From assembly GCA_963748215.1 (NCBI GenBank), contig CAVVHS010000006.1, forward strand, positions 288,001 through 352,000: a stretch of DNA of 64,000 bases, in the 5' to 3' direction. The stretch is from an uncultured Gammaproteobacteria bacterium (GTDB lineage: Bacteria > Pseudomonadota > Gammaproteobacteria > UBA9214). Every line of letters starts with the position of its first letter. The first letter of the stretch is position 1. The translations under genes were made by a program, and so were the position numbers. Positions 17,139-45,333 of the stretch are shown here, piece after piece. The notes under the pieces were generated by a model that saw only the letters and a list, made by a program, of their open reading frames with translations, searched no databases and was not told the origin of the DNA.

Positions 17139-17909
17139 GGATTTTACCCCGACTTCACGGACACATTCATATAGGCTGATAATGTGCCTGGAGGTGTGTC
17201 ATGTCAAAGCGCAGGAACAAGATGGAGCCATGGCATTCCTGGGCCTGGGTAAGGCGCGGGACGAAGAGATGGCACAGCTCAAGTTCGAGCTGGCACGGGT
17301 AAAAAAGGAACGGGATTTTTTTGCAAGAAGCGGCAGTGTTCTTCGCGAAAGCGTCGAAATGAGATACCGAATGATCCAACGTTGTCGCGATGCCTTTCAC
17401 GATTCGGTTGATGTGTCGCTGCTTGAAGGTCTCACCGGGTGGCTTCGGGCTGGCGAGATCGACCGCTGAGTGCCAGGGCCAAAGACAATCAGCGCCTGCT
17501 GGGTCGTATCCGTTCGTTGCATACAGACAGTGACGGTGTGCTGGGCAGCCCGCGTATCTGGGATGACCTGGTGGCAACGCGAAGATCGCGCACCGGTCAT
17601 CTTGCACTCGTGTCGCGGTTGTCAGTTCACCAGGGGCGAGTATCAGCGCTTCCTGAAAGGCCATAACCTGGTCTGCAGCATGAGTGCCGTGGGCAGTTGC
17701 GCTATCAATGCGGCCATAGAAGGGTTCTTTGGCATGTTGAAACGGGAGCGCGTTAACCGCCGGATTTACCGAACACGGGCCGAGGCCAGGGCTGATGTCT
17801 TTGACTACATCGAACGTTTCCACAACCCGAGAAGGAGGCGGAGACTTGAAACGGTTAAACAGAAGGAATTACTCTTAACTCAACCGTCCATGGAAACGGG
17901 GTAAAACCC
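17139..17909 (+). mobile_element. Internally deleted IS3-family element
   Basis: Terminal inverted repeats GGATTTTACCCC... and ...GGGGTAAAACCC; orfA tail (ELARVKKERDF) and orfB fragments (GSPRIW; LHSCRGCQF, SMSAVGSC..NAAIEGFFGMLKRE, IERFHNPRRR). Only ~770 bp. Confidence 0.85.
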
Positions 17910-18450: not shown

Positions 18451-18609
18451 GTATCAATGCGAGCCAATAGGGTATTGGTTTAGTCAGGCTCGGTCAATCA
18501 TCGGCAGGCTCAGGCAGCATCCGGCTTGCGCAGCCGGCCGCTCTCGCGTCCCAATTTGCGCAGACTTTCCTGTAACATGCGGGCGACAGTAATCCTGCTT
18601 CCGAATGCC

Positions 18610-19332
18610 ATGCGCCACAGCCAGTTGACAACAGAAACGCGCAGCGATGCACGCCAGTGCCTGCGACGCTGCGTGCTGTTCTCAAAGCTGCCCGATGCGC
18701 AGTTCGAGCGCATCCTGGAGCATACCCGCGCAGTAGCGCTCGACGAGGGCGATGTGCTGTTCGAGCAGCACCAGCCGGCGAAGGAGGTCTTCCTGTTGCG
18801 CAGCGGACAGGTGAAACTTGCGCTGGTGTCTCCCGAGGGCCATGAGAAGGTCATCGACCTGATCTCGCCCGGCGGTACGTTTGCCGAGGCCATCATGTTT
18901 TCCGGTACCCGTGTCTACCCGGTCACGGCCACGGCGCTGGTCAGCAGCAGCGTCTGGGGGGTCAACGCGGGGACCTACGAGGACATCCTGCGGGTATCGA
19001 CCGATGCCTGTTTCGCGGTGCTGGCACAGATGAGCCGGCGCCTGCACTGGCAGATCGCCGAGATCGACCGCCTGACCCTGCACAATGCCGCCTTCCGGGT
19101 GATCGCCTATCTGCTGGACCAGGTGCCCAGCACCGACCTGGACGCCAGCGTGATCCACCTGGATACGCCCAAGCATGTCATTGCCTCGCGCCTGTCCATC
19201 ACGCCGGAGACCCTGTCGCGTACCTTCGCCAGGCTGGGCCGGGACGGTTACCTGCAGATCGAGGACAACTCGGTGCGCATCCAGGACATCGAGAAACTGC
19301 GTACCTACATACGCAACGGCGGTGTCGTCTAG
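18610..19332 (+). CDS. Crp/Fnr-family regulator, DNR/NnrR-like
   Basis: cNMP-like domain (LFEQ...SGQVKL...EKVI...FAEA), HTH IASRLSITPETLSR; no FNR N-terminal Cys cluster; sits next to nor/nir genes. Confidence 0.85.
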   Translation: MRHSQLTTETRSDARQCLRRCVLFSKLPDAQFERILEHTRAVALDEGDVLFEQHQPAKEVFLLRSGQVKLALVSPEGHEKVIDLISPGGTFAEAIMFSGTRVYPVTATALVSSSVWGVNAGTYEDILRVSTDACFAVLAQMSRRLHWQIAEIDRLTLHNAAFRVIAYLLDQVPSTDLDASVIHLDTPKHVIASRLSITPETLSRTFARLGRDGYLQIEDNSVRIQDIEKLRTYIRNGGVV

Positions 19333-19547: not shown

Positions 19548-20522
19548 TTATGAGGATGTCCGGCTTCTGGTGGGCGTGACCAGATGGTTGAGATTGACCA
19601 GGGACAGTAAGAGCATTGCACCGATGCCGTTGTGAGCTGTCACCAGGAGCAGGGGCAGTTCGGCGAGTACTGCTGAAATACCCAATGCCGCCTGTAAAAC
19701 CAGAAAGCCGAGTATGCTCACAGCCGTGTTGCGCAGGCGGTCCTGTTTCCAGGCCCGGATGGCCAGCCATCCAAGGTACAGAAGAGTCAACATGGCGCCA
19801 AACCGGTGTGCCATGTGTACGGTTCTCTGTAAGCTGCCGGTAACAATCCTGCCCTGCTCATCGACGTCAAGCCTGTCGAACAGGTTGAATCCCTGCATGA
19901 GGTTGGTGAAAGACGCCCAGTCGCCGTTGCAGCCGGGCAGCACCGAGCAGGACGGTCCGGCAAAATCGGCACTGACCACGGCACCCAGGGCAATCTGTCC
20001 GGCCACGACCAGCAGGCCCAGTCGTGCCCAGGGTCTTAGGGTCGATGCTGCGTCGTCAGCGGTGTCTATGGTTTCCACCGAACGCTGGCCAATCCACCAC
20101 AGCAGAGCGAGCATCGTCATGCCGCCGAAAAGGTTGCCGAACGTGACGGCGGGTATGTCCGGTGACGGTGTGCTGTAACCCAGTACCGACAGAAACACAG
20201 TCAGGGCAAAGACTGACAGTGGCGCGACAAGGCCAACACCGGTCGGGCGACGTCCACGCAGGGCCAGGAGCGTGATAGCCAGAATAATCACGCCCAGCAG
20301 GCTGGCCGTGAACCGGTGAACCGCACCTGCCGTGGTGCGAGGTACCAGTCCATGATCCCGGGTCGCGGGCAGCTGTCCGAAACAGCCCGGCCAGTCTTCG
20401 CAACCGAGGCCAATGCTTTCAAGACGCAGGTAGGCGCTCAACAGGACAGCCGCCAGTGTCAGTACCAGTGCCACAAACACAAGCAAGGTGAAAAGGCTGC
20501 CGGATGGTGTCCTGTCATTCAT
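19548..20522 (-). CDS. COX15/CtaA-family membrane protein (divergent heme A synthase paralogue)
   Basis: GLGCEDWPGC, VHRF, second Cys pair CSVLPGC, HMAHRFGA, VTAHNG; about 8 TM segments. Confidence 0.8.
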   Translation of the reverse strand: MNDRTPSGSLFTLLVFVALVLTLAAVLLSAYLRLESIGLGCEDWPGCFGQLPATRDHGLVPRTTAGAVHRFTASLLGVIILAITLLALRGRRPTGVGLVAPLSVFALTVFLSVLGYSTPSPDIPAVTFGNLFGGMTMLALLWWIGQRSVETIDTADDAASTLRPWARLGLLVVAGQIALGAVVSADFAGPSCSVLPGCNGDWASFTNLMQGFNLFDRLDVDEQGRIVTGSLQRTVHMAHRFGAMLTLLYLGWLAIRAWKQDRLRNTAVSILGFLVLQAALGISAVLAELPLLLVTAHNGIGAMLLLSLVNLNHLVTPTRSRTSS

Positions 20523-20721
20523 GGGCCGGGCTTCGTCGCTGTGGGAGTGCCGCAATTAAAAGGGGCTGCGGGCACGAGATGCCAGTTATTACACTGGCTG
20601 GATGAAATTGTCAAAAAGCAGGCTGGTAGTTTTATTTTCCAATCGTTATAGTCTCTTATAGCGCGAAAGGCAGTGTTTTTTCACCTGTCGGTTTTCCTTC
20701 GATTGGGTAGTCAATGTGGTG

Positions 20722-22095
20722 ATGCATGAAGAATACGTTCTAGACGTACCGGCTGGCAACCGTCGTCAGCTGGGCAAAGGCTGGCTGTGGCTGGGGATAA
20801 TGGCGTTGCTGGGTTCGGGTCTGTTTTCCCTGCTGCTGGTGCTGTCACGTACACCCTACATTCAGGACAGCATTCCATGGATTGATTTTTTCCATACGGC
20901 ACTGGTTGTCCACGTGGACCTGTCGGTGCTGGTGTGGTTTCTGGCGTTTGGCGGCGTACTGTGGACCCTGAATTCCACCCCGCGTTTCCTGTTTCTCGGC
21001 TGGGCAGCGCTGCTGCTGGCCGGACTGGGCGCCGCGCTCATGATCGTGGTGCCGTTCCTCGGTCCGGGTAATCCGCTGATGAGCAATTATATCCCGGTGT
21101 TGCAGACCCCGCTCTTTAGCGTGGCATTGCTGGGGTTTGGCTTCGGAATAACCTTGCTGGTCTTGCGTGGCATGATCGCCAACCCGCTGGTTGGTTTGCG
21201 CATGGAAGGCGCGGGCGCATTACGCTTCGGTTTGAATACCGCTGCCGTGTCGGCCGTTATGGCGGTGTTCGCCTTTACCTGGTCGTATCTGGCGATACCC
21301 GACACTATCACGGGTAACTCCTATTTCGAGCTGCTGTTCTGGGGTGGCGGCCATATGCTGCAATTCACCTACACCCTGCTTATGCTGGTGGCCTGGCTCT
21401 GGCTGGCATCCGCCTCCGGCGTGCACCTGCCGCTGAGTCCCCGGGTGGTATTGGTTTTGTTTGTGTTCGGGCTGGTGGCCGTGTTTATGGCGCCGCTGAT
21501 TTACTATGCCCATCCGGTTCTCTCGGCTGAACATATCAAGCTGTTTACCTGGCTCATGGCCTATGGTGGCAGCCTGGCGCCCGTGCCACTGGGGCTGGCG
21601 GTCTTTTACGGCCTGTTGCGCAGCGCCTCCGCATCCGCATTGCAGCTTCCCTTGCGCTCGGCCCTGTGGTGCTCGATGATCCTGTTCGGAATCGGCGGTG
21701 GTATCGGTTTTATGATCCAGGACAGCAATGTCACCATCCCCGCGCACTATCATGGCTCCATCGTGGGCGTCACACTGGCCTTCATGGGTTTGACATATCA
21801 TCTCTTGCCGCGCCTGGGATACGCCAGGCCGAACATGAGGTGGGCCGCCCTGCAGCCTTACGTGTATGGCGGCGGCCAGCTGTTGCATGTTCTGGGGTTG
21901 GCGTGGTCGGGCGGCTACGGCGTGCAGCGGAAAGTGGCAGGTACGGAGCAGGGTCTTGATGGCCTGGAAAAGATTATAGCGATGGGGTTGATGGGCTTCG
22001 GCGGGCTGGTTGCCATCATCGGCGGTCTTGTTTTCCTGGTGGTGGTACTGGCTGCCATGACCAGGAGTCCACAGCCACAGCAGGGCGCGACTTGA
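20722..22095 (+). CDS. Heme-copper oxidase subunit I-like protein lacking the CuB His-His pair
   Basis: About 12 hydrophobic segments; VVHVDLS, WGGGHMLQF, IPAHYHG, GVQRK motifs; no HH in the helix VII region. Confidence 0.75.
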   Translation: MHEEYVLDVPAGNRRQLGKGWLWLGIMALLGSGLFSLLLVLSRTPYIQDSIPWIDFFHTALVVHVDLSVLVWFLAFGGVLWTLNSTPRFLFLGWAALLLAGLGAALMIVVPFLGPGNPLMSNYIPVLQTPLFSVALLGFGFGITLLVLRGMIANPLVGLRMEGAGALRFGLNTAAVSAVMAVFAFTWSYLAIPDTITGNSYFELLFWGGGHMLQFTYTLLMLVAWLWLASASGVHLPLSPRVVLVLFVFGLVAVFMAPLIYYAHPVLSAEHIKLFTWLMAYGGSLAPVPLGLAVFYGLLRSASASALQLPLRSALWCSMILFGIGGGIGFMIQDSNVTIPAHYHGSIVGVTLAFMGLTYHLLPRLGYARPNMRWAALQPYVYGGGQLLHVLGLAWSGGYGVQRKVAGTEQGLDGLEKIIAMGLMGFGGLVAIIGGLVFLVVVLAAMTRSPQPQQGAT

Positions 22096-22487
22096 TGCGT
22101 CCAGGGGTAAATGGGGCATCAAGGAATCTGCCGGGTAGCGGGCGGGCAGGGTTTGCCGCGCTCGCACTGCCGCTTGTCTTCATACTGGCCGGAGTGCCAC
22201 CGAGCGAAGCGAATCTCCCGGGCCCGCAAACATCACCAGCCCTGCGCAGCTCACCAACGGTGACTGAAGCCGGCGCGAATATCACTGGCGCTGTGGCAGG
22301 GGTGACCGCGCCTGCCGCCGGCGCTTCGGTAACGAAGTTTCCCGATCCGGTGGCGGAACAAACGCCAGTCGATGACGAACGCAAGGATTTGACGGTGTTC
22401 TTTTCCATCGGTGCGATTCTTGACGTGCTGCTGGTGGCGGCCTTCCTGATCTGGGCCGTCGGGCAGTGGCGCAAGGCGAATAAATAG
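22095..22487 (+). CDS. Small hypothetical membrane protein
   Basis: Fills the gap between the HCO-like and SCO genes; N-terminal hydrophobic stretch, Pro/Ala-rich linker, C-terminal TM + QWRK. Confidence 0.5.
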   Translation: MRPGVNGASRNLPGSGRAGFAALALPLVFILAGVPPSEANLPGPQTSPALRSSPTVTEAGANITGAVAGVTAPAAGASVTKFPDPVAEQTPVDDERKDLTVFFSIGAILDVLLVAAFLIWAVGQWRKANK

Positions 22488-22500
22488 GAGCTTGAGACCG

Positions 22501-23136
22501 ATGTCTGAAACTACACCCAGGCCTTACGGAACACTGTTGCTTTTCGTTTTCTTTTGTCTGCTGCTGGCAGCGGTTTACTACTGGATGCTGCCTGGCAAGA
22601 CGGTTCCGGATGAACTCCAGGGTGTGCTCCGTCCCGAGCCGGTGCCATTGCAGGCGTTCGAACTGGTCGATCAATACCGGCAGCCTTTTGATCTGGAACG
22701 CCTGAAAGGGAAGTGGAGTCTTGTTTTTTTCGGCTATACCTTTTGCCCTGACATCTGTCCGACGACACTCTCAACCCTGAGCGGGGTGATCAAGCGACTG
22801 CAAGCCGATCCGCAGGGACTTGCCGGCACACAGGTCGTATTCGTTACCGTGGATCCACGGCGCGACACCCCGGATGTCATTGAAAGCTATCTGAAGTACT
22901 TCAATGATACCTTCCAGGGTGTCACCGGCCCGCAGCAGGATATCGACGGCCTGGCCCGGCAGTTTGGCGCAGGTTACGTAACCGAGCCGGAAACCGTGGT
23001 TGGACAATACCTGGTCAGCCACACCAGTTCGATTTTCCTGGTCGATCCGCGCGGACGCCTGCTCGCTGCATTTTCCCCGCCGCATGACCCCGGCACCATT
23101 GCCGATCAGTTCCGGCAGATTCGCTCACTTTTCTGA
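22501..23136 (+). CDS. SCO1/SenC copper chaperone
   Basis: FFGYTFCPDICP, VTVDPRRDTP, YLVSHTSSIFLVDP. Confidence 0.93.
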   Translation: MSETTPRPYGTLLLFVFFCLLLAAVYYWMLPGKTVPDELQGVLRPEPVPLQAFELVDQYRQPFDLERLKGKWSLVFFGYTFCPDICPTTLSTLSGVIKRLQADPQGLAGTQVVFVTVDPRRDTPDVIESYLKYFNDTFQGVTGPQQDIDGLARQFGAGYVTEPETVVGQYLVSHTSSIFLVDPRGRLLAAFSPPHDPGTIADQFRQIRSLF

Positions 23137-23546
23137 TGGGCGTACTCCCCGGCAAATTCATCCTCGCGGTTTTCATGGTGCTGGCCATACTGGCTGGATG
23201 CGGCCAGGAGGTTGCATACACACCGGCTGAACTGGGTGCATTTATTGACGAGTTGAAGGCAGATGGCGTGGACGGGTCGTTGTTTATACGGGCGCCTCTC
23301 AACGAGGACATGGACTACATCGCAGAATATACAATAGCAAGGTATGCAAGTACGCGTGTCATTTCCTTCTTCAAATTCAAGGATGCTGAAAAGGCTGAGG
23401 CGGGTCTGCGGGAGGCCTTGAAGAATGACAAATTGTCCGGACAGGCTAGCAATGCGTCATTTGTCATGGCAGCGACATTTTACCCCCCGGATGACGAGGC
23501 GGTAGCGAAGATAAAAGCGCGGTTTCTTGTGCACAAATTTGACTGA
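23136..23546 (+). CDS. Hypothetical lipoprotein
   Basis: Lipobox LAGC; start and stop overlap with both neighbours (TGATG). Confidence 0.65.
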   Translation: MGVLPGKFILAVFMVLAILAGCGQEVAYTPAELGAFIDELKADGVDGSLFIRAPLNEDMDYIAEYTIARYASTRVISFFKFKDAEKAEAGLREALKNDKLSGQASNASFVMAATFYPPDDEAVAKIKARFLVHKFD

Positions 23547-24307
23547 TGAAAAAGACCCGCGTTCTGCTTGTGCTGCTGGTCCTGTGCATTGCAGTTGTCG
23601 GTCTCTTACACCTGGTGACGCCGCAGCTCGATGCGGTGCAGGAGTGGGAATCGCGTAAACCCCGTTTCCAGCAGGCGGCAGACCATGCCGAGCCCCTGGT
23701 CAGGGCCATCACCGCGTACGCGTCCGCCTTCGGCCATCCACCATCGGCACTCGTCGACCTCATACCAGACTATATTGAAAAACTGCCCGCCACGGGGCTG
23801 CAGGAATGCCGCAGCTTCGAATACCGTTCTCTCATGCACAAGCAGGGCTCGATCGTGTGGTATGACCTGGGTTCAAGGCAGGGCGAGCCGTATTCCGGGG
23901 CGAGCCGGTACAGCGTTGGTGATCCGGATCACACCATCCTGGTGTTTGTGCTGGATGCGAAGGAACAAATCGCCAGCGCCCTGATCGACCGGATGCCGAA
24001 AGGCCGCGAGCCGCTGGATTTTGATCCGGAACGCTGGAAGGCCGCCGCAAACCGCATCGAGATGGCGCTGGCGCTGGCAGATACCTACAGACTGTATGGC
24101 ATGCCCAGAGACGTGTTCGAGGGTCTGCTTGGGGCTCCCGATGGCAGTCGGTCTGTGCACGGCACTCCCTGGGAATTGCGTATCAATTGCCCGACCGGTC
24201 TGCTGAACCACGATAGCTTTGTTTACTGGCCCACCGGGGAGTATCCGGAGCATCTGTATGGGGGGGTTACCGAGTCCGTTGGCAGATGGGTCTATGTCCA
24301 CAGCTGA
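23546..24307 (+). CDS. Hypothetical exported or membrane-anchored protein
   Basis: N-terminal TM; AITAY....GHPPSALVDLIPDYI resembles pseudopilin-like helix-loop segments; coupled to the upstream gene. Confidence 0.6.
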   Translation: MKKTRVLLVLLVLCIAVVGLLHLVTPQLDAVQEWESRKPRFQQAADHAEPLVRAITAYASAFGHPPSALVDLIPDYIEKLPATGLQECRSFEYRSLMHKQGSIVWYDLGSRQGEPYSGASRYSVGDPDHTILVFVLDAKEQIASALIDRMPKGREPLDFDPERWKAAANRIEMALALADTYRLYGMPRDVFEGLLGAPDGSRSVHGTPWELRINCPTGLLNHDSFVYWPTGEYPEHLYGGVTESVGRWVYVHS

Positions 24308-24434: not shown

Positions 24435-24887
24435 ATGTTCGGTTTCAAGAGTTCTTCTGCCAGGGATAGCTCGCATTGCCTGCTGAAGGAGGTGGGTATA
24501 GCCGAGATCAACAAGCAGCACCTGCGCCTGGCGAGTTATGCCGTGGAGTTCAGCATGATCGTGGACGAGTTGTCCGGCAGGGAAGTCACCAACCAGGACT
24601 GGCGTCGAATCGACGCGCTGTTCAGCAAGATCATGCGCTACGTAGCGACACATTTCACGGAGGAAGAGGCGTTAATGCGCGAATACGGCTACCCGGACTA
24701 TGCCGCGCACAAGAAACTCCATGACAAGTTCTCCGCGGAGATGATAAAACTGCAGGCGGACATCAATAACCGGAATATCAAGTTCAAGAAGAAAATGAGC
24801 AGCCTGCTCTGGGACTGGCTGTATCACCACATCAACGAAATCGATTATCAGTACCGGGATTTCTTCCTGAGCAAGGGACTCAGCTGA
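24435..24887 (+). CDS. Single-domain bacteriohemerythrin
   Basis: Di-iron ligands: QH, HFTEEE, HKKLH, WLYHHINEID; RBS GGAGG. Confidence 0.9.
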   Translation: MFGFKSSSARDSSHCLLKEVGIAEINKQHLRLASYAVEFSMIVDELSGREVTNQDWRRIDALFSKIMRYVATHFTEEEALMREYGYPDYAAHKKLHDKFSAEMIKLQADINNRNIKFKKKMSSLLWDWLYHHINEIDYQYRDFFLSKGLS

Positions 24888-26644: not shown

Positions 26645-27148
26645 TTACTGATAGAAGAACTTGCCGGTTTCAGAGTCGAAATTGACGACCAGCAGCTGTG
26701 CCGGTTTCAGGGATACCGTTCGCTCGTCGGTATGTGTGTGGCCCTGCACATGCACACTGTCGTTCATTCCCACGGTCAACTTGTGTTCACCAGCCGGTAC
26801 TTTGGCGCTGACGTAGACATCGATTCCGAGGTCATTGTACAAGCCCGGTGGATGGAAAACTTTCCCGATGATTGGCTTGTCGTCCAGCAACAGGTCCACG
26901 GTGACGGGTGAACGTTCACGCGGACAGTCCACAGGAGCGCGCATATTGGGTGGCAGCCTGGCCAGTTCCTCCTGGGAAAGCGTGTGGCATTCCTCAATCC
27001 GCACTCCGGCGTGGGAAAATGCCATCGTGATGACTGCCTGGTCGGGTGTCAGATGGGTGTAAGCCGGCGCGGCCGAGAAGTACCATACCAGGAGCATGAA
27101 GACACCGTAGTTCACGGCCTGTAAGGGATAGCGCAGGAAAAAAGGCAC
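26645..27148 (-). CDS. Membrane-anchored periplasmic protein with a Cys pair, partner of the cytochrome b fusion
   Basis: GTG 27148 lies 4 bp after the upstream stop; TM anchor, FSHAG, ECHTLS...RLPPNMRAPVDCPRERSP, beta-rich C-terminus. Confidence 0.7.
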   Translation of the reverse strand: MPFFLRYPLQAVNYGVFMLLVWYFSAAPAYTHLTPDQAVITMAFSHAGVRIEECHTLSQEELARLPPNMRAPVDCPRERSPVTVDLLLDDKPIIGKVFHPPGLYNDLGIDVYVSAKVPAGEHKLTVGMNDSVHVQGHTHTDERTVSLKPAQLLVVNFDSETGKFFYQ

Positions 27149-27152
27149 TCCG

Positions 27153-28718
27153 CTACTCCCGCTGCTGCGCGGCGATGGTGTCAGCCACGTCGTTCCCCAG
27201 CGTGGCAATGTGGCGCTGAAAATCGTCAAGATGACGACGCAGTTTTGCCCCGTCGGTTGCGGCGGCACGAAATATGGTGATGCGCTCACGTCTGGCGCGT
27301 GTTCGCAGCACCGGCTTGCGTCTGCCCTCGAAACGCTGCTCCATCCAGGTATTTCCCAGACGGAAGAAGCAGTCACCGCTGCGGCATCCTGTAATGAAGA
27401 CCCCGTCCGCACCCTTTGCCTGTGCGTATTCAACGAGAGTGGGCGGGATCATTCCGGTGCAGAACAGGCTCAGCACGGCGACATTGTCTGACTGCAGTCC
27501 TGTGACGTCGATGGCATTGTCACAACCGAATACCATAATCCGGGTATCGCCCTTGAGTTCTGCCAGCGCCGATTCAGTCTGCGTCCGGATTTCGTCGATC
27601 GCGAACTGGGGCATATCGATGCCGGTTTCCAGTGTGCTTGCTGCTTGCCGGAAAGGATTGGATGAGTGACAGGAGCCGACACAGATGCCGCAGGCGCCGC
27701 ACTGGGCAGGGTTGACAACGACCTCGTTTTTCCAGCGGGCCCCGTCACTGCGCGCACGTACCGTGATGGCGTCGAACGGACAGTCTTCGGCGCATTGGCC
27801 ACAGCCATTGCACTGATCGAGATGCACCACCGCCACAGGCCCGGTTTTTCTGGGCGGCAGCCAGGGCATGATCATCAGCAGCAGGGTGACGCTGGTCGTC
27901 AGTAGCCAGACCTGATCTGCCGGCCACCTGTCGAGCAGGGGGTAGACATTGAGATAGAACCAGTCGAGTTTCAGTACCGCTGGCACCCTGGAGAGGTCCG
28001 CAGGTGCATGGCTGGTCGCCGGTACCAGCAGCGACAGTACGAGCAGCGCCAGTAAACTGCCCACCGCCAGACCCCGGGGGGCACTGATCTCGACATGGGA
28101 GAGCCGCTTGACATGAAGCCAGATGACAACGGCCAGTAATATCGGCTGTCCCAGCAGGTGCAGGAAGCCCATCAGGGTGAACAAGCGGTCTGTGAGCTGT
28201 CCCGTGAGGAAATCACGCGCCATGGAACCCGTCACCACCGGCAGTGAATCCATTAGCTGGGAGGAGAGGGTCGCAACATACAGCCCCAGTTCATCCCATA
28301 CGAGCCAGTAACCGGTAATACCCAGGGTGATAACGAACCACAGGGCTGGCACCCCGGTGACCCAGGACCACCAGCGGAAGCCATGATAGCGGCCGAGGGC
28401 GAACTCGCGGAACATATGCAGCAGAATGGTGACCACGGCGGCATCCGAGGCATAGCGATGCAGGCTGCGCATAATGCCGCCCGCATACCATTGCTTGTGG
28501 GTTATGGCCTCCACCGAGGTATAGGCACCGACAATGCTGGTGTCGAAAAAGATGAACAGGTAAAGGCCGCTGATGAGTACGACCCAGAAGAAGAAGAACG
28601 TGAGTGTGCCCAGGTGATAGAGGGGGTTCCAGACCGGCCCGAAAGATATGTTGAACCAGTCCTCGAGCAGGAGATAACTGCGCTTGATGGGATTAACGCG
28701 TGCGTTCACGGATGACAT
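27153..28718 (-). CDS. Cytochrome b/b6-like domain fused to a 2x[4Fe-4S] ferredoxin and an MvhD/FlpD-type [2Fe-2S] domain
   Basis: Heme His in RSLHRY, LLHMFR, FLHLL, WLHVK; ITGYWLVWD; LDWFY (PEWY-like); CNGCGQCAEDCP and CGACGICVGSCH; VFGC, LFCTG, GADGVFITGCRSGDC. Confidence 0.85.
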   Translation of the reverse strand: MSSVNARVNPIKRSYLLLEDWFNISFGPVWNPLYHLGTLTFFFFWVVLISGLYLFIFFDTSIVGAYTSVEAITHKQWYAGGIMRSLHRYASDAAVVTILLHMFREFALGRYHGFRWWSWVTGVPALWFVITLGITGYWLVWDELGLYVATLSSQLMDSLPVVTGSMARDFLTGQLTDRLFTLMGFLHLLGQPILLAVVIWLHVKRLSHVEISAPRGLAVGSLLALLVLSLLVPATSHAPADLSRVPAVLKLDWFYLNVYPLLDRWPADQVWLLTTSVTLLLMIMPWLPPRKTGPVAVVHLDQCNGCGQCAEDCPFDAITVRARSDGARWKNEVVVNPAQCGACGICVGSCHSSNPFRQAASTLETGIDMPQFAIDEIRTQTESALAELKGDTRIMVFGCDNAIDVTGLQSDNVAVLSLFCTGMIPPTLVEYAQAKGADGVFITGCRSGDCFFRLGNTWMEQRFEGRRKPVLRTRARRERITIFRAAATDGAKLRRHLDDFQRHIATLGNDVADTIAAQQRE

Positions 28719-28817: not shown

Positions 28818-28831
28818 TTGATATTTCTCAA
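28818..28831. promoter_or_regulatory. FNR/DNR box upstream of the cytochrome b-FeS fusion
   Basis: TTGATATTTCTCAA, one mismatch to TTGAT-N4-ATCAA, 100 bp upstream of ATG 28718. Confidence 0.65.
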
Positions 28832-29679
28832 GTGCGTGCGGAGTCCCGGCCCTGCCTGAATTCGCGTACCAGGAGAAAGATGCCGGTAAGTATAATGGAA
28901 GCCCCGATAGCCATGCCAATAAACAGGGAATAGTCGAAATAGTAGGCATCGCGCACCGGGTCGTAGCTGGTACAGAACAGGTTCACCTTGTCCAGCAGTC
29001 CGGCGAGCAGGCCCTGATTCGGCTTGGGTCGTCCGAACACGAGTTCCTTGAGGGGTTCTACCAGTAACGGTGTATCGAATACCTCTCCGTACACCTGCCG
29101 GTAGACGCGACCCTCGGCGTCGATCACCGTGGTCTGCGTGATATGGTCGAACCCGCTGGGTGAAGAATAAAACTCAAACCCCAATTCCTTGCTCAGGACA
29201 TTGACGGTATCCGGGCTGGCGCTGAGCAGGTACCAGCCGCGGTCATCGATACCCTGCTTTTTGGCGAACTGGATCATGGCCTGCGGGCTGTCGTTGTAGG
29301 CATCGAAACCGAGCACGGCAACGTTGAAGCTGTCTTCACCCAGGGCCTTGCGTGCCTTCTCGACTACCCCGGCGAGATGGCGTGTGGTCATGGGGCAGAT
29401 CTGGGCGCAGCTGGTATAGATCAGGCTCAATACCAGCGGCTTGCCGCGCAGTTCGTGCATGGGCAGGGCGCGACCTTTGTCGTCGGTCAGGGAGTGATTG
29501 CCGAGCACCTGGCCGATGGCGTCCTGGCTCTTCTGAAGGGCTTCCTTGTAGCGAAATTCCTTGACCGGGTCCAGCGGCAGATTTCCTCTCGCCGATCCGT
29601 ATGCTGCCTGGGCTACGCAAAAAAATGCGCAACACATAACAGCGAGTAGCAGGACGGGAGACCGGGACGCATACCGCAT
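28828..29679 (-). CDS. SCO-family protein with C-terminal extension and TM anchor
   Basis: SLIYTSCAQICP, GFDHITQ, then LFCTSYDP...YSLFIG TM. Confidence 0.85.
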   Translation of the reverse strand: MRYASRSPVLLLAVMCCAFFCVAQAAYGSARGNLPLDPVKEFRYKEALQKSQDAIGQVLGNHSLTDDKGRALPMHELRGKPLVLSLIYTSCAQICPMTTRHLAGVVEKARKALGEDSFNVAVLGFDAYNDSPQAMIQFAKKQGIDDRGWYLLSASPDTVNVLSKELGFEFYSSPSGFDHITQTTVIDAEGRVYRQVYGEVFDTPLLVEPLKELVFGRPKPNQGLLAGLLDKVNLFCTSYDPVRDAYYFDYSLFIGMAIGASIILTGIFLLVREFRQGRDSART

Positions 29680-29718
29680 GTTCGAGTGCCTCAAGGGCGA
29701 ATAACGCAGCACACGTTA

Positions 29719-30630
29719 TCAGCCAATCAGCTGGGCGTCGAGTACGGCAAATACCAGTAGCACAATTAATTGAACCAGTGAGGCGAAAAAGGCACGCATG
29801 CCGTTCCCCGGGGAGGTGTCCTGCACCAGTAGCAGGCTACGGTAGATAAAATATCCGCCCCCGAGCAGGGCGCCGGCCAGGTACAGCCAGCCGAGGCCAA
29901 AGAAAAACGGCAGGATGGAGGTGCCCACCAGCAGTAGCGTGTGAGCCAGCACCACTTTGGCTGCTGTTGCATTGCCCACCTGCACCGGCAACATGGGCAC
30001 GCCGACGGCCTCGTAGTCCTTGTGCCGCGCGATGGCCAGGCTCCAGAAATGCGGAGGGGTCCAGAGGAACAGCACCATGGCCAGTATCAGGGGGACTGGT
30101 CCCAGGCCGGGATCGACCACGGCCGCGCCGGCGAGCACGGCAAAGCTGCCCGAGGCGCCACCGATCACAATGTTCATCGATGTGCGGCGTTTCAGCCATA
30201 CGGTATAGACGACGGCATAAAAGAACGCGCCCAGAAAGATATACAGGGCAGCCATGCCGTTGAGCAACCACCCGGCCATGCCCACGCCGACCAGCAGCAT
30301 GGCGCCGATCAACAGCAGCCACCAGCGTTCATGCGCAAAGGCGCCGGTCACGAAGGGGCGGTCAGCGGTGCGGCGCATGCGCGCATCGATGTCGGTCTCG
30401 TAATACTGGTTGAATGCGCCTGCACTGCTGGCCGCCAGCAGTACGGTGGCGGCCAGAACCAGCACCTGCCCGGGAGCTACCGGATGCCCGGGTGTCACGA
30501 CCAGGGCCACCACAGAGGTGAGAGCCATGACGATACCGATGCGCAGCTTGAAGAGATTGGACAACTGATTAAGCAGCGCCGGCCAGTCAAATGGCTGTGT
30601 TAATGCAGCATTTACAGAGACTCTTGGCAT
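29719..30630 (-). CDS. ctaB: Protoheme IX farnesyltransferase (heme O synthase)
   Basis: FNQYYETDIDARMRRTADRP, YTVWLKRRT, FLWTPPHFWSLA, DY..VGVPMLP. Confidence 0.95.
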   Translation of the reverse strand: MPRVSVNAALTQPFDWPALLNQLSNLFKLRIGIVMALTSVVALVVTPGHPVAPGQVLVLAATVLLAASSAGAFNQYYETDIDARMRRTADRPFVTGAFAHERWWLLLIGAMLLVGVGMAGWLLNGMAALYIFLGAFFYAVVYTVWLKRRTSMNIVIGGASGSFAVLAGAAVVDPGLGPVPLILAMVLFLWTPPHFWSLAIARHKDYEAVGVPMLPVQVGNATAAKVVLAHTLLLVGTSILPFFFGLGWLYLAGALLGGGYFIYRSLLLVQDTSPGNGMRAFFASLVQLIVLLVFAVLDAQLIG

Positions 30631-30688: not shown

Positions 30689-32413
30689 CTAGCTGAGCGG
30701 CCAGACTGAGGCCAGATACTTCCAGTTGATGAAATAATACACAACGAAGGAGACCAGCAGCACCATCGCCAGCGCAAAGGTGCCGGGAGCTTCAAAACCG
30801 GCTGAACGGTGCTCCCCGAGAGGCTCCGCCATGGGCAGCACGGCAGGCTGCGCCGTGTAGTTACCGGACGACAGCGGTATGCCGAAGCTCTGCAGGAAAC
30901 CGGCTGACGGATCCAGTTGCTTGCCGAACACCAGGGAGCCGACCGTGATGAGCAGGTAGGCGCCGCCGCCGATAACGGCAAGCACCGCTCCCATGCCGGC
31001 GATACCCATCAGGGTGTAGGCCATGCCCGAGTACTCGAAACTCAGCGCAGCACCGGTGAAGTCCATGTCCCAATGACGCCGGGACACACCGAGGGTGCCG
31101 GCACCCAGCATGAACAGGATCAGGATGGTCATACCTGCCCCGAACAGGTAGGGCTGCCACTTGGCCAGTGTGGGCAGAATCATCTGGCGCCGGAACAAAA
31201 CGGGGATCAGGAAAAATGTCAGACCCATGAACGTCAGGGTGGTGCCGACCGCCACCGTGGCGTGGAAGTGGGCCGGGACATAGATGGTGTTATGGATGAT
31301 CAGGTTGATCTGTTCCGTACCCATCACAACACCCGTAATGCCACCGATAAACCCGAAAATGATAATCGAGATAAAGGTGGAGGAGAATACCGGGTTGCCC
31401 CAGGGCGCCTTGCGCAGCCATTCGAACAGGCCGTGCGTATAGCCTTTCTGGCGCTGGGCGACTTCCATGGAGCCCGGTACCGTCAGGCCATGGATCATGC
31501 TGGCCAGGACCGCGAGATACATGGCATAACTGGTGTTGAAGATCTTCCACTCGGCGCTGATACCCGGGTCCACCAGGATGTGATGGGCGCAGGCGAGTTG
31601 CAGGAACAGGATGTAGAGCAGAAATGCGGTGCGGCTCACTTTCTCCGACATGGGGCGTGCACCGAATACCAGGCCAGCGACCAGGTACCATACCGACACA
31701 TGCGCGACGACGTTGATCTGCTGGGAGGAATGGCCCATGCCCCACCAGATGAGGCGGTACATCTCCGCATCGATGTTCGCAATATAGCCGATCGACCACA
31801 GGAAGGTGGGGATCAGGATGATGGCGCCGCTGGCGATGGTGAATACGGCGATAATGGCGGCGGTCATGGCGCCGAAGGTGACCAGCGGTATGGAACCCTC
31901 ATAGGTGCGTTCGTTCCTGGCAGTAACCAGGGTACCGAAAAACACGAAGCAACCGATCAGGGCGCCGACCGCAAACAGGATCAGTCCCAGGTAGAAATGC
32001 GGTGCTGCCTGCATCGGAACATAGGAGGTCATCATGACGCTCGAACTGCCCTGGAAAATGGCCACGTTGGTCGTAATCGCACCGATCAGCATCAGCGCAA
32101 AGCCCAGCCAGGCCCAGCGCGGTGTCGCCAGCCTGCACCTCAGCAGGGTCGAGGATGCAAAATAGAGAATCGCGATTTCGAAGAAAATGATCCAGAAGAT
32201 CAGTGCGTCGATGCCATGTGCCGTGAGGAACATGTAGAACTGATCAGCAGGCAGCAGGTGCACCGCCGGCCAGCGTGTCAGTGCCACACCGAGCGCCAGC
32301 ACGCCGGCCACCAGCAGGGAGACGGCGGCGGCGACTGCGTTGGCCTTCATCAGGCTTTCAGCTTGCTTGTCGAAATACAGGCCCGTGTCGGGGCAGAGTC
32401 TAAAGTTTGCCAT
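30689..32413 (-). CDS. Heme-copper oxidoreductase subunit I, eNOR-type nitric oxide reductase
   Basis: All six His present (LTAHG, GHSSQQIN, AHH, PAHFH); Gln rather than Tyr at His+4; B-family-like architecture; located in a nir cluster with a DNR box. Confidence 0.8.
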   Translation of the reverse strand: MANFRLCPDTGLYFDKQAESLMKANAVAAAVSLLVAGVLALGVALTRWPAVHLLPADQFYMFLTAHGIDALIFWIIFFEIAILYFASSTLLRCRLATPRWAWLGFALMLIGAITTNVAIFQGSSSVMMTSYVPMQAAPHFYLGLILFAVGALIGCFVFFGTLVTARNERTYEGSIPLVTFGAMTAAIIAVFTIASGAIILIPTFLWSIGYIANIDAEMYRLIWWGMGHSSQQINVVAHVSVWYLVAGLVFGARPMSEKVSRTAFLLYILFLQLACAHHILVDPGISAEWKIFNTSYAMYLAVLASMIHGLTVPGSMEVAQRQKGYTHGLFEWLRKAPWGNPVFSSTFISIIIFGFIGGITGVVMGTEQINLIIHNTIYVPAHFHATVAVGTTLTFMGLTFFLIPVLFRRQMILPTLAKWQPYLFGAGMTILILFMLGAGTLGVSRRHWDMDFTGAALSFEYSGMAYTLMGIAGMGAVLAVIGGGAYLLITVGSLVFGKQLDPSAGFLQSFGIPLSSGNYTAQPAVLPMAEPLGEHRSAGFEAPGTFALAMVLLVSFVVYYFINWKYLASVWPLS

Positions 32414-32419
32414 GCCTCA

Positions 32420-32962
32420 TCACTCCTTCACGTAAATTCTGCCGAGCATGGTATGGTGACCAATGCCGCAGAATTCGTTACAGACCACGCCGTACTCACC
32501 GGCGACATCAGGGGTTATCGTCAGCACCATTTCATAGCCGGGAACCACCTGCATATTGATGTTGACGGGCTGCAGGGAGAACCCGTGCTGCCAGTCCATG
32601 GAGGAGAGGTGCAGTCGGTAGCTCTTGTCTTTCTCCAGTTCCAGGATCGGCCACCATTGCCACAAACGCCCCAGCATATAGATGTCGCTGCCAGCCGGCG
32701 GATGCACAACCGGGATCTTCTGCTCGGTTTCGGTACGGACAGTATACTGGTCGATCATGTCCTGGACCTTGGCGCCGAATTGGGCTGGCGTGGTCCGGTA
32801 GGCTTCGCTGGAGAGGTTCTGTTTTCCGTACACATGCCAGTACGGCATCATGAAAAACATGATCAGACACCAGATCAGCGCAATGCCGATCCAGACGATT
32901 TCCTCGCGGCCAACGGGTACCTTCCACCAGATGCGCTGTGCGGGCGGTAAATAAGAAGTCAT
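32420..32962 (-). CDS. Subunit II with CuA centre (eNOR/ba3-type)
   Basis: Single TM; DWQHGF and CNEFCGIGHHTM CuA ligands. Confidence 0.9.
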   Translation of the reverse strand: MTSYLPPAQRIWWKVPVGREEIVWIGIALIWCLIMFFMMPYWHVYGKQNLSSEAYRTTPAQFGAKVQDMIDQYTVRTETEQKIPVVHPPAGSDIYMLGRLWQWWPILELEKDKSYRLHLSSMDWQHGFSLQPVNINMQVVPGYEMVLTITPDVAGEYGVVCNEFCGIGHHTMLGRIYVKE

Positions 32963-33248: not shown

Positions 33249-33262
33249 TTGATATAAGTCAA
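33249..33262. promoter_or_regulatory. FNR/DNR box upstream of the eNOR operon
   Basis: TTGATATAAGTCAA, one mismatch to consensus. Confidence 0.7.
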
Positions 33263-41860: not shown

Positions 41861-43638
<1,778 letters not shown>

Positions 43639-43662: not shown

Positions 43663-43676
43663 TTGATTTATATCAA
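43663..43676. promoter_or_regulatory. FNR/DNR box upstream of nirS
   Basis: Perfect TTGATTTATATCAA. Confidence 0.88.
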
Positions 43677-45319: not shown

Positions 45320-45333
45320 TTGATCTTCATCAA
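45320..45333. promoter_or_regulatory. FNR/DNR box upstream of the nirI-like gene
   Basis: Perfect TTGATCTTCATCAA. Confidence 0.85.

Follow-up and report, generated by a model that had tools for sequence, protein, structure and literature searches.

The HCO superfamily has so far been defined by its haem/CuB(FeB) centre. In a survey of the superfamily, gNOR, in which one active-site His is changed to Asp, was described as the first family to replace even one of the three histidines of this centre (PMC11214002). The eNOR of Rhodothermus marinus is a characterised enzyme (PMC11214002), and a Gln at the position of the cross-link Tyr has been given as a criterion for eNOR (PMC8756737). According to one preprint, the common eNOR operon contains eNOR II, eNOR I, a haem o synthase, sco1 and an 'eNOR scaffold protein' of unknown function, and its two cytochrome b genes were called 'rather unusual' (10.64898/2026.01.22.701106). 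Apart from that single sentence on a scaffold protein, neither an HCO family that lacks CuB nor an HCO-like gene in ResB/CcsA clusters is described in the literature covered by our search, to which the PNAS and bioRxiv supplements, where the family may be treated, did not belong.

The DNA analysed here (the window) is a stretch of 64,000 nucleotides from an uncultured gammaproteobacterium. It encodes an HCO subunit I-like protein, called HCOL, away from the operon of an eNOR. HCOL may well carry two haems and assist the maturation of haem cofactors, either by relaying electrons or by docking haem, rather than reduce O2 or NO. The genes concerned are the following:

18526..19332, + strand: regulator of the Crp/Fnr family, upstream of CtaA
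19548..20555, - strand: CtaA (haem A synthase, COX15-CtaA; PF02628, E 1.8e-42)
20716..22095, + strand: HCOL, 459 aa from GTG 20716 or 457 aa from ATG 20722
22092..22487, + strand: 131-aa ORF overlapping the HCOL stop; its N-terminus resembles a signal and a hydrophobic helix lies at its C-terminal end
22492..23136, + strand: SCO1/SenC copper chaperone-type thioredoxin-fold protein (PF02630, E 3.7e-41)
23136..24307, + strand: two ORFs of no assigned family, 136 aa (lipoprotein-like signal) and 253 aa, kept in the closest relatives (L004, L005)
24435..24887, + strand: hemerythrin-like protein, 150 aa (PF01814, E 1.2e-10), which recurs in eNOR neighbourhoods
26645..27148, - strand: p167, a membrane-anchored beta-sandwich (start GTG 27148; invariant C54 and C75), directly upstream of HCOL in relatives
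27153..28718, - strand: CytbFeS, with cytochrome b, 2x[4Fe-4S] and MvhD/FlpD domains by Pfam
28828..29712, - strand: SCO-like protein of the eNOR operon, 294 aa, found in 64 of 80 loci
29719..30630, - strand: CtaB/CyoE-type haem O synthase (UbiA family; PF01040, E 1.3e-49)
30689..32413, - strand: eNOR subunit I, a B-family-like HCO with GHSSQQ (Gln at the Tyr position), AHH and HFH
32420..32962, - strand: eNOR subunit II, a COX2-like cupredoxin (PF00116, E 9.5e-5, 22.7 bits against a cut-off of 22)

The ATG start of HCOL is preceded by GGGTAG and gives the commonest length among homologues; residue numbers below refer to the 459-aa form and are lower by 2 in the ATG-start form. CtaA, the only match to PF02628 in this genome, is divergent from HCOL across a 160-bp spacer. 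HCOL, the 131-aa ORF, the SCO gene and the two further ORFs lie on one strand with overlaps or tiny gaps, and the order HCOL-SCO recurs in loci L001, L003, L004 and L005. The 131-aa ORF is uncertain as a real gene because it is poorly conserved: it belongs to no Pfam family and had a tblastn match in one of 80 loci. The preliminary description of the locus had noted that no subunit II gene adjoins HCOL, which is correct for the window, where eNOR subunit II is the only COX2-like gene. For p167, no Pfam family and no Foldseek match at E<=0.001 were found, and VIA-align returned generic beta-sandwiches only (Z<=8.8); its interpretation as a degenerate subunit II, Cox11 or PCuAC gained no support from these comparisons, which gave no significant cupredoxin match. 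CytbFeS belongs to a cytochrome b type called 'PDWF-FeS' (PMC4122944).

Three contigs of 151 nt each from the RNA library of one estuary metatranscriptome run fall on HCOL or just downstream with 0-4 differences, a weak hint of expression from which nothing follows for the stretches left uncovered. Annotation pipelines label genes of this type 'cbb3-type cytochrome c oxidase subunit I', and such labels make terminal oxidases and NORs look more numerous in metagenomic surveys than they are.

Fold, haem ligands and the former metal site

By fold and by the COX1 profile, HCOL belongs to subunit I of the HCO superfamily. PF00115 (COX1) covers residues 19-419 on profile positions 2-422 of 436, nearly the full length, at 42.6 bits (cut-off 34.8), and the AF2 model (pLDDT 94.0, pTM 0.94) has ba3 subunit I (4g7q_A) as its top Foldseek match (E 6e-9, TMq 0.74). 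Among PDB sequences, ba3 was reached with the family profile (E 4.1e-13 over 15-448), which was required, as phmmer with the single sequence gave no match there at E<=1. A match to PF02628 is absent from HCOL in the Pfam search, CtaA being a separate neighbouring gene.

The helix II His (VVH66VD), the helix VI His (GGGH213MLQF, with F217 and no Tyr at +4) and the helix X HxH (PAH344YH346) were already listed in the preliminary description, and all of them are conserved in a wider set. H66, H213, H344 and H346 are invariant among 16 close homologues and present in 119-122 of 122 sequences down to 31% identity (H66, H346 and H344 in 121, 119 and 120, respectively); with W209, R405 and K406 included, the range is 117-122 of 122. 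The profile alignment pairs H66, H346 and H344 with H72, H386 and H384 of ba3, and leaves the His pair and the Tyr of ba3 without counterpart. By this alignment, H66 and H346 are the predicted low-spin haem ligands, H344 is the predicted high-spin haem ligand and H213 corresponds to one His of the CuB/FeB site. Conservation of the ligands suggests that HCOL binds haem.

No HH dipeptide occurs anywhere in the protein, as had been stated, and I262-Y263 takes the position of the pair whether HCOL is aligned by profile to T. thermophilus ba3 or by MAFFT with nine sequences of eNOR subunit I. The His of YYAH266 is not conserved, with Y in 44, H in 13 and F in 13 of the 122 sequences. Since the pair is replaced and this His is variable, one of the three CuB/FeB histidines is retained in HCOL, and H213 is the sole survivor. 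The earlier claim that no binuclear site can form without the pair is reasonable but not absolute, given the His-to-Asp change in gNOR (PMC11214002).

The cross-link Tyr that marks the O2-reducing A, B and C families, and has migrated in the C family, is also lacking at the position that it has in ba3: Y237 of ba3 aligns with Q216, and the residue at +4 from H213 is F217. Q216 (121 of 122 sequences) aligns with the first Gln of eNOR GHSSQQ; the diagnostic position of eNOR is +4, which is F217 in HCOL. Along the putative proton path, eNOR H223, S289, H292 and T295 are replaced in the HCOL family by M, P/A/I, L/I and A (MAFFT alignment), and ba3 Y244, Y248, S309, T312 and T315 correspond to M223, W227, P289, L292 and A295. 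No proton path to the former metal site is conserved in the profile and MAFFT alignments. The full three-His site, the K-type proton path and the CuA-type subunit II alongside, which characterise eNOR, are thus all absent from HCOL. Having lost two CuB/FeB histidines, the Tyr and the polar proton-path residues, HCOL is not expected to reduce O2 or NO in the manner of an HCO.

A different use of the remaining haem pocket is possible, if rather unlikely. Freed of CuB/FeB, a five-coordinate haem could bind O2 or NO reached through the retained hydrophobic channel, which would make HCOL a gas carrier, scavenger or sensor (for example, bringing O2 to CtaA, which depends on it, in microoxic cells, or acting as a buffer for NO); in another version, H213, E205, Y263, Q388 and H391 would form a site with new catalysis. 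Y133 of ba3, which we take from the titles of its mutant structures to be an O2-channel residue, is kept with its YPP context as the invariant Y125-x-P127, and helix VI is rich in glycine (GGGH). Other polar residues that are invariant in, and specific to, the eNOR-type clade (N124, E205, Y263, Q388, H391) could constitute a new catalytic or metal site, a point against a role confined to haem maturation. However, the clade found with cytochrome c maturation genes has no obvious need for O2 or NO and lacks Q388, H391 and usually Y263, and the missing proton path to the site speaks against this reading as well.

Family size, descent and genomic contexts

Among 8000 candidates, 6737 matched HCOL, and the family comprises 1449 clusters at 50% identity. 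Of the 120 matches listed, 114 had 65-90% identity and six were incomplete forms matching 76-80% of HCOL. The size and conservation of the family rule out chance. Loss of two metal ligands and of the channel residues might be taken to indicate a functionless remnant of a duplicated eNOR subunit I, an explanation that we regard as very improbable. It is contradicted by an intact reading frame, by identities of 64-87% across orders and phyla-level labels, by some 25 positions near-invariant down to 31% identity, by the number of clusters and by synteny conserved in three distinct contexts. The family is under strong constraint and is not decaying; relaxed selection, which had been named as evidence that would count against the preliminary description, is clearly not observed.

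Searched with the HCOL family profile, the genome itself gave 141.8 bits for eNOR I, -6.5 for the A-type and -3.6 for the C-type subunit (the A-type subunit of L031 scored 4.1), while ba3 scored about 50 bits. R45, Q216, W227, T278, S320 and Q380 are common to HCOL and eNOR I. By profile score, eNOR subunit I is the nearest relative, and HCOL is a paralogue derived from it.

Context was examined in 80 genome loci with relatives of HCOL, among them loci of the isolates Noviherbaspirillum sp. ST 5-3, Piscinibacter caeni and Seongchinamella sediminis. The typical operon reads eNOR II-I-CtaB-SCO-CytbFeS-p167-HCOL-(CtaA). Of the 57 loci with at least 7 kb of upstream DNA, 52 had eNOR I ahead of HCOL on the same strand, with HCOL closing the operon; CytbFeS preceded HCOL by no more than 3.5 kb in 61 of 70 loci, and p167 was its direct upstream neighbour in 51 of 78. 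The window differs from this usual layout in that HCOL stands away from CytbFeS-p167, beside CtaA and SCO. The description of HCOL as heading an operon with a SCO gene therefore holds for the window but not for most relatives, in which it is the last gene of the eNOR operon.

The fixed order of CytbFeS, p167 and HCOL behind eNOR II-I in most loci raises the question of whether these three proteins are a membrane electron-transfer module. In such a module HCOL would be a haem wire without a role in maturation, and would feed eNOR from quinol or a cytoplasmic donor, or couple NO reduction to another redox reaction. We assign this alternative a low probability. Predicted fusions of cytochrome b with HCOL (P0121) and of cytochrome b, Fer4 and HCOL (P0271) are in its favour, as is an FNR-type box, judged by a consensus that we assume, about 100 bp upstream of CytbFeS (TTGATATTTCTCAA, 28818..28831, 1 mismatch). 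A second such box, by the same assumed consensus, lies upstream of eNOR II (33249..33262), and none occurs in the CtaA-HCOL spacer even when 2 mismatches are allowed. In the Ferrigenium preprint, the cytochrome b proteins are proposed to form a supercomplex with eNOR, and its mention of 'all four proteins' in the denitrifying proteome is taken to include the two cytochrome b proteins (10.64898/2026.01.22.701106). However, the cupredoxin subunit II already provides the electron entry of eNOR, HCOL is parted from CytbFeS-p167 in the window, and the gene also occurs without eNOR, CytbFeS and p167, in clusters of A-type oxidase, CtaA, CtaB and SURF1 and in ResB-CcsA operons.

The converse case, eNOR without HCOL, was met in 6 of 26 eNOR genomes of a 400-genome sample, in which four candidates were scored per genome, so that HCOL absences are soft; these six were rechecked at the locus. 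Their operons (eNOR II-I-(CtaB)-SCO-CytbFeS-p167-hemerythrin) retain CytbFeS-p167, which argues against an obligatory module with HCOL, and they equally show that HCOL is dispensable for some eNOR, a point against its being a maturation accessory. They also bear on gas binding: in all six, a 130-aa hemerythrin (PF01814, a diiron O2/NO-binding fold) directly follows p167, in the usual place of HCOL, and in L173 CtaA comes next. Of roughly 100 eNOR-type loci that contain HCOL, about 10 also have this type of hemerythrin. The displacement is not clean, since hemerythrin and HCOL stand together in several operons and in this window, and the six genomes span five genera. A further reason to consider gas binding is the unsolved question, raised in the preprint, of how O2-dependent haem A synthesis proceeds during anoxic growth (10.64898/2026.01.22.701106).

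Outside eNOR operons, HCOL often adjoins genes of haem synthesis, oxidases, oxidase assembly or cytochrome c maturation. Among 12 HCOL genomes without eNOR, eight have HCOL beside CtaA, CtaB, SURF1, SCO, an A-type oxidase or ResB/CcsA; in L031 the order is COX3-SCO-COX2-COX1(A)-CtaB-HCOL. A SURF1 gene is part of the HCOL cluster in L082, L132, L139 and L145. In 80 metagenome loci seeded from distant members of the family, CcsA was present in 27, ResB in 24 and a ResA-like thioredoxin in 23, and the clade with the CcsA context is monophyletic (support 0.94). Eight of these 80 were of the divergent SCO-CtaA<->HCOL type, five with CtaB next, three continuing to SURF1 and two to COX3-COX1-COX2. 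A predicted fusion of HCOL with UbiA was also found (P0255); like the cytochrome b fusions, it is a single predicted protein from metagenomes. The UbiA domain of P0255 is haem O synthase-like. TPR accompanied HCOL in 7 of 10 long forms scanned.

CtaA occurs within the HCOL locus in 39 of the 80 genome loci and is directly adjacent in 16. HCOL as a replacement for CtaA was rejected, since PF02628 is found in 48 of 50 HCOL genomes, and the two others are MAGs of 2.2-2.3 Mb without a completeness figure. A fusion of HCOL with CtaA was likewise rejected. Open frames of 780-930 aa were observed, but in L040 the stop codon of HCOL overlaps a CtaA start codon that is in another frame, and the genes are coupled rather than fused.

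A possible role in haem-cofactor maturation

The neighbours of HCOL in many genomes suggest that it helps in making or loading haem cofactors. In this genome, CtaB and the adjacent CtaA would supply haem O/A(s) for eNOR, and the A-type oxidase would probably also be served. Electrons may enter HCOL from CytbFeS, pass to the bis-His haem (H66/H346) and then reach a five-coordinate haem pocket formed by H344, with H213, E205 and Y263 on its distal side. From there, the pocket could relay electrons to haem-processing enzymes, so that the iron of haem stays ferrous for CtaB/CtaA or, in the clade found with cytochrome c maturation genes, for CcsBA; alternatively, it could be a transient dock for haem in transit. 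The direction of electron flow and any contact of HCOL with CtaA, CtaB or eNOR are inferred, and a complex prediction of HCOL with CtaA, which scored 0.00 in two runs, carries no weight either way.

Some points weigh against a maturation accessory. Redox enzymes, rather than chaperones that have to release haem, typically contain two stably bound and deeply buried haems, and HCOL is often but not always located with CtaA (39 of 80 loci, as above). Gene neighbourhood alone does not separate a maturation factor from a respiratory partner. The preliminary description had proposed a non-catalytic or neofunctionalised fold that acts as a haem-modifying or haem-delivering scaffold, a copper-handling factor or an electron shuttle for eNOR. 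In partial agreement with this, HCOL is an eNOR-derived paralogue and an accessory gene of eNOR clusters, with ties to haem O/A synthesis genes and, elsewhere, to cytochrome c maturation. Sequence alone does not choose between dock, relay and gas binding. For copper handling nothing specific emerged, the nearby SCO genes being equally explained by CuA assembly.

A more far-reaching proposal, which we consider improbable and offer tentatively, is that HCOL, reduced by CytbFeS, provides the redox or gas-handling function still missing from bacterial haem A synthesis, and that the family represents HCO-fold 'haem maturation reductases'. If so, haem A(s) for eNOR could be produced by CtaB/CtaA even where denitrifying cells are microoxic or nominally anoxic, and one unrecognised class would act in the haem O/A pathway as well as in System II cytochrome c biogenesis, for neither of which has the physiological haem reductant been identified. 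Operon settings in haem A synthesis, oxidase/NOR assembly and cytochrome c maturation touch on several questions: the reductant of, or O2 source for, bacterial haem A synthase, the supply of haem A(s) to eNOR in denitrification, and what keeps System II haem reduced. More generally, a large and strongly conserved family that does without two histidines and the proton path would show the HCO fold in a use that differs in kind.

Comparison with described systems

Surf1/Shy1, CbaX and CtaM take part in haem A delivery to oxidase, and CcmF of System I, itself a haem protein of the membrane, reduces haem or handles it in cytochrome c maturation. The role proposed for HCOL would resemble theirs by analogy only, as they are unrelated in sequence and fold. 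gNOR shares with HCOL an altered set of active-site histidines; gNOR keeps its metal site and subunit II, whereas HCOL drops two histidines and has no conserved acidic replacement there.

In the preprint, the 'eNOR scaffold protein' is named in a single sentence that gives neither an analysis of its sequence nor a family or a function (10.64898/2026.01.22.701106). From its operon list and from the gene order in the Ca. F. bremense locus L071, where SCO is followed by CytbFeS, p167, HCOL and CytbFeS, this protein is very probably HCOL, or else p167. The cytochrome b genes found unusual in that text (10.64898/2026.01.22.701106) contrast with the regular presence of CytbFeS upstream of HCOL reported above.

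The best solved match in both structure and sequence is ba3 (4g7q, 1ehk and others), at about 17% identity. Its H72/H386, H384, CuB ligand H233, W229 and RR pair all have counterparts in HCOL, whereas H282/H283, Y237 and the K-path analogue (Y244, Y248, S309, T312, T315) have none. Compared with eNOR I, HCOL is about 115 aa shorter, has I/Y in place of HH and hydrophobic residues in place of the putative proton path, lacks a cupredoxin partner of its own, and also occurs in operons without any eNOR. The two nevertheless have in common the 12-helix HCO fold, the putative haem ligands H66/H346 and H344, the residues H213, W209, R45, W227, T278, S320 and Q380, a Gln next to where the cross-link Tyr would stand (Q216 in HCOL) and, in most genomes, the operon itself.

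The HCOL gene and its conservation

HCOL, a haem-copper oxidase (HCO) subunit I-like protein, is a paralogue of eNOR subunit I that keeps both haem pockets and is under strong constraint, but has lost the greater part of its second metal site, along with the putative proton path. The genes concerned are:

19548..20555 (-), CtaA, haem A synthase
20716..22095 (+), HCOL
26645..27148 (-), p167, a membrane-anchored beta-sandwich protein
27153..28718 (-), CytbFeS, a cytochrome b/FeS protein
30689..32413 (-), eNOR subunit I
32420..32962 (-), eNOR subunit II

The HCOL reading frame is intact (GTG start, 459 aa, the form used here for residue numbering); the ATG at 20722, which the preliminary description took as the start, is preceded by GGGTAG and gives 457 aa, the usual length of homologues. 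All the haem-ligand motifs reported there were recovered (VVH66VD, GGGH213MLQF with F217 at +4, and PAH344YH346) and, as it had stated, the sequence contains no HH.

Pfam COX1 matched weakly over nearly the complete protein (42.6 bits, cut-off 34.8). NCBIfam gave no match, nor did phmmer with HCOL alone against PDB sequences. A word-indexed search returned 6737 proteins at E<=0.001 (8000 candidates scored); among the 120 matches listed, 114 were near full length (65-90% identity) and the other 6 were incomplete forms (76-80% of the query covered, 82-88% identity). Gammaproteobacteria, Thiogranum, Acidiferrobacterales, Bacteroidota and Methylomirabilis are among the source labels, and named matches are annotated as 'cbb3-type cytochrome c oxidase subunit I'. 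When the 50%-identity representatives were searched exhaustively, 1449 matched at E<=0.001, and 613 reached E<=1e-30. Of the 150 representatives listed, 121 have a length of 420-500 aa; in their alignment with HCOL, 24 residues each occurred in at least 111 of the 122 sequences: W23, R45, H66, W74, N124, Y125, P127, E205, F208, W209, G212, H213, Q216, W227, T278, M281, S320, H344, Y345, H346, Q380, G387, R405 and K406. The signature of decay that had been proposed as a refutation was looked for, and the number of homologues and their residue conservation are its opposite; that HCOL is a decaying duplicate is thus barely credible.

Gene neighbourhoods within and outside eNOR operons

Loci of the best 80 of 596 HCOL relatives, on one-genome-per-species contigs, were compared with the window's proteins by tblastn. 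The prevailing same-strand order is eNOR II - eNOR I - (CtaB, haem O synthase) - SCO - CytbFeS - p167 - HCOL - (second CytbFeS or CtaA). eNOR I lies upstream of HCOL in 52 of the 57 loci whose upstream DNA reaches 7 kb or more, CytbFeS at most 3.5 kb upstream in 61/70, and p167 directly upstream in 51/78, with a second CytbFeS between p167 and HCOL in about 14 other loci. CtaA occurs in 39 of the 80 loci and directly adjoins HCOL in 16. Two CytbFeS paralogues are found in many operons, the additional copy standing either between p167 and HCOL or behind HCOL (L016, L018, L019, L024, L030, L040, L045, L047, L054, L058, L062, L065, L076 and the Gallionellaceae loci); one paralogue also has FAD- and NADH-binding domains, according to the portion covered of a Ferrigenium preprint (10.64898/2026.01.22.701106).

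The window and its closest relatives (L001-L005) have HCOL in another place: CtaA is divergent from it and SCO follows, and CytbFeS-p167 (28718..26645, -) remain behind the window's eNOR operon, 4.5 kb from HCOL. This CtaA is the only one in a genome with four COX1-type genes. Because a FastTree tree rooted on eNOR I groups the window's HCOL, with weak support, with those of eNOR-type loci, next to L001, L002 and L004, the CtaA-HCOL-SCO arrangement is likely a secondary rearrangement. Two short overlapping ORFs (17182-17904, +) lie between a Sel1-repeat gene and the Crp/CtaA/HCOL block; by eye, their translations look to us like an IS3-type transposase remnant split in two, and this putative remnant may be relevant to the separation of HCOL from the eNOR operon. 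An 815-aa product (14499-16946, +) consists almost entirely of Sel1-like repeats (AAQGDAxAQxNLGxMY...), as judged from its translation only.

Across 400 class-level genomes at least 90% complete (thresholds: HCOL, >=280 bits; eNOR I, E<=1e-60), HCOL was found in 32, eNOR I in 26 and both in 20. In the 12 HCOL genomes without eNOR, the gene stands beside haem or oxidase maturation genes in 8; 3 were uninformative and 1 contig was too short.

Table. Neighbours of HCOL in genomes without eNOR
CtaA divergent from HCOL: L084, L086, L090, L091
SURF1-x-CtaB: L082
A-type COX2-COX1-SCO: L083
ResB/CcsA/thioredoxin/TPR: L088, L092

A MAG labelled Nitrospirae (L031:4899-11356) holds an A-type caa3 operon ordered COX3-SCO-COX2(cyt c)-COX1(A, 481 bits)-CtaB-HCOL. 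It is the sole case with HCOL at the position expected for CtaA, which was not found anywhere in the 2.2-Mb assembly.

Distant HCOL members fused to TPR, used as seeds in a metagenome scan, led to 80 loci of three classes. The first is of eNOR type (p167 in 26 loci, CytbFeS in 28). The second, SCO<-CtaA<-->HCOL, comprises 8 loci, with CtaB next in 5, SURF1 in 3, and COX3, COX1(A) and COX2 present in 2; four short loci contained HCOL and CtaB only. The third is multihaem cytochrome c - ResB - CcsA - HCOL(-TPR) - ResA-like thioredoxin (CcsA 27, ResB 24), and the HCOLs in CcsA context make up a single clade (26 plus 3 unclassified; support 0.94). The HCOL family is not confined to eNOR, and its members sit in three kinds of neighbourhood for haem-cofactor maturation.

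Partner proteins and proposed role

CytbFeS combines cytochrome b, two [4Fe-4S] and MvhD/FlpD domains and is of the 'PDWF-FeS' cytochrome b clade, as described in the part covered of Kao and Hunte 2014 (PMC4122944). For p167, the ORF as called (262 aa) starts too early: the conserved product is 167 aa long and begins at GTG 27148, 5 bases past the CytbFeS stop. Present in 72/80 related loci, it comprises a single helix and a beta-sandwich, and its C54 and C75 are invariant; it matched no Pfam or other known family and gave no specific fold match in structure searches.

All six HCOL-less eNOR genomes (L173-L178) have the order eNOR II-I-(CtaB)-SCO-CytbFeS-p167, with a 130-aa hemerythrin directly next, at the usual place of HCOL (e.g., L173:3425-3814, L176:5814-6206); in L173, CtaA and a HemN-like radical-SAM gene follow. 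Since the same type also occurs inside about 10 HCOL-containing loci, this hemerythrin is an optional member of the eNOR module, enriched where HCOL is missing. The window's nearby hemerythrin (24435-24887; 150 aa) is a different one. The pattern in the HCOL-less operons keeps a gas-binding role for HCOL in play as a rival; that HCOL is a haem protein which binds gas or has acquired a new catalytic function we regard as unlikely.

Among 10 long HCOL representatives scanned with Pfam, one is a predicted cytochrome b + HCOL fusion (P0121), one a predicted HCOL + UbiA fusion (P0255), seven carry a C-terminal TPR and one had no Pfam match. A search of longer proteins added P0271, a predicted cytochrome b + Fer4 + HCOL protein (1011 aa, 58% identical). 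In some organisms, then, HCOL is predicted to be fused to cytochrome b/FeS, UbiA or TPR. Apparent HCOL-CtaA fusions were rejected as overlapping genes in different frames.

We give an even chance to the reading that HCOL is no reductase but binds two haems and either relays electrons or docks haem. It would do so for CtaB/CtaA in the window's genome, and for CcsBA in others. A single complex prediction, pairing HCOL with CtaA, gave no verdict either way. That HCOL is purely a respiratory wire for eNOR we also consider improbable.

We take TTGAT-N4-ATCAA to be the FNR-type box consensus. One-mismatch boxes lie upstream of CytbFeS (28818-28831) and eNOR II (33249-33262), and perfect ones upstream of a cytochrome c/partial-d1 gene (box 43663-43676; gene 42511-43599) and an FMN_bind/Fer4_5 gene (box 45320-45333; gene 43691-45286); if as many as 2 mismatches are allowed, the window has 35, against 17.3 expected. 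The 42511-43599 (-) product (362 aa) combines a cytochrome c domain with a match to no more than the first ~95 positions of the cytochrome d1 profile (PF02239 2-95/368), and is a fragment or else the product of a truncated NirS/NirN-like gene; it adjoins a full nirS/nirF/nirDLGH/nirJ set.

HCOL and known haem-copper enzymes

In the portion covered of Murali et al. 2024 (PMC11214002), gNOR is presented as the first HCO family replacing an active-site His, and the only related remark is that many eNOR operons contain CtaA. The 'eNOR scaffold protein' in the covered part of a 2026 preprint (10.64898/2026.01.22.701106) is probably the same gene as HCOL; beyond these two sources, our literature search found nothing further on the family. 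The derived CtaA-HCOL-SCO arrangement is new from the window, and the co-occurrence counts and the hemerythrin pattern in HCOL-less operons are new from its study.

A family profile built from 66 HCOL sequences matches T. thermophilus ba3 subunit I end to end (E 4.1e-13, ~50 bits). With ba3 numbering obtained from the V236L mutant chain (offset of 7), H66, H213, H344 and H346 align with ba3 H72, H233, H384 and H386, W209 with W229, and R405-K406 with the Arg pair; I262-Y263 lie opposite H282-H283, and Q216 opposite Y237. The ba3 K-path analogue residues Y244, Y248, S309, T312 and T315 align with M223, W227, P289, L292 and A295. The AF2 model is confident (pLDDT 94.0, pTM 0.94) and most resembles ba3 chains (E 6e-9, TMq 0.74), with cbb3, bo3 and aa3 next.

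The nearest relative is eNOR subunit I: the profile scores 141.8 bits against the window's own, versus -6.5 and -3.6 against the same genome's A-type and C-type and 4.1 against the L031 A-type. Assignment of 30689..32413 to eNOR, from its GHSSQQ/AHH/HFH motifs and ba3 match (E 1.5e-39), fits the Gln criterion that defines eNOR in the part covered of PMC8756737. When nine eNOR I sequences were included in an alignment by MAFFT, their HH fell on HCOL 262-263. R45, Q216, W227, T278, S320 and Q380 are common to both proteins, whereas eNOR H223, S289, H292 and T295, taken as the proton path because they align with the ba3 K-path region, are substituted in HCOL.
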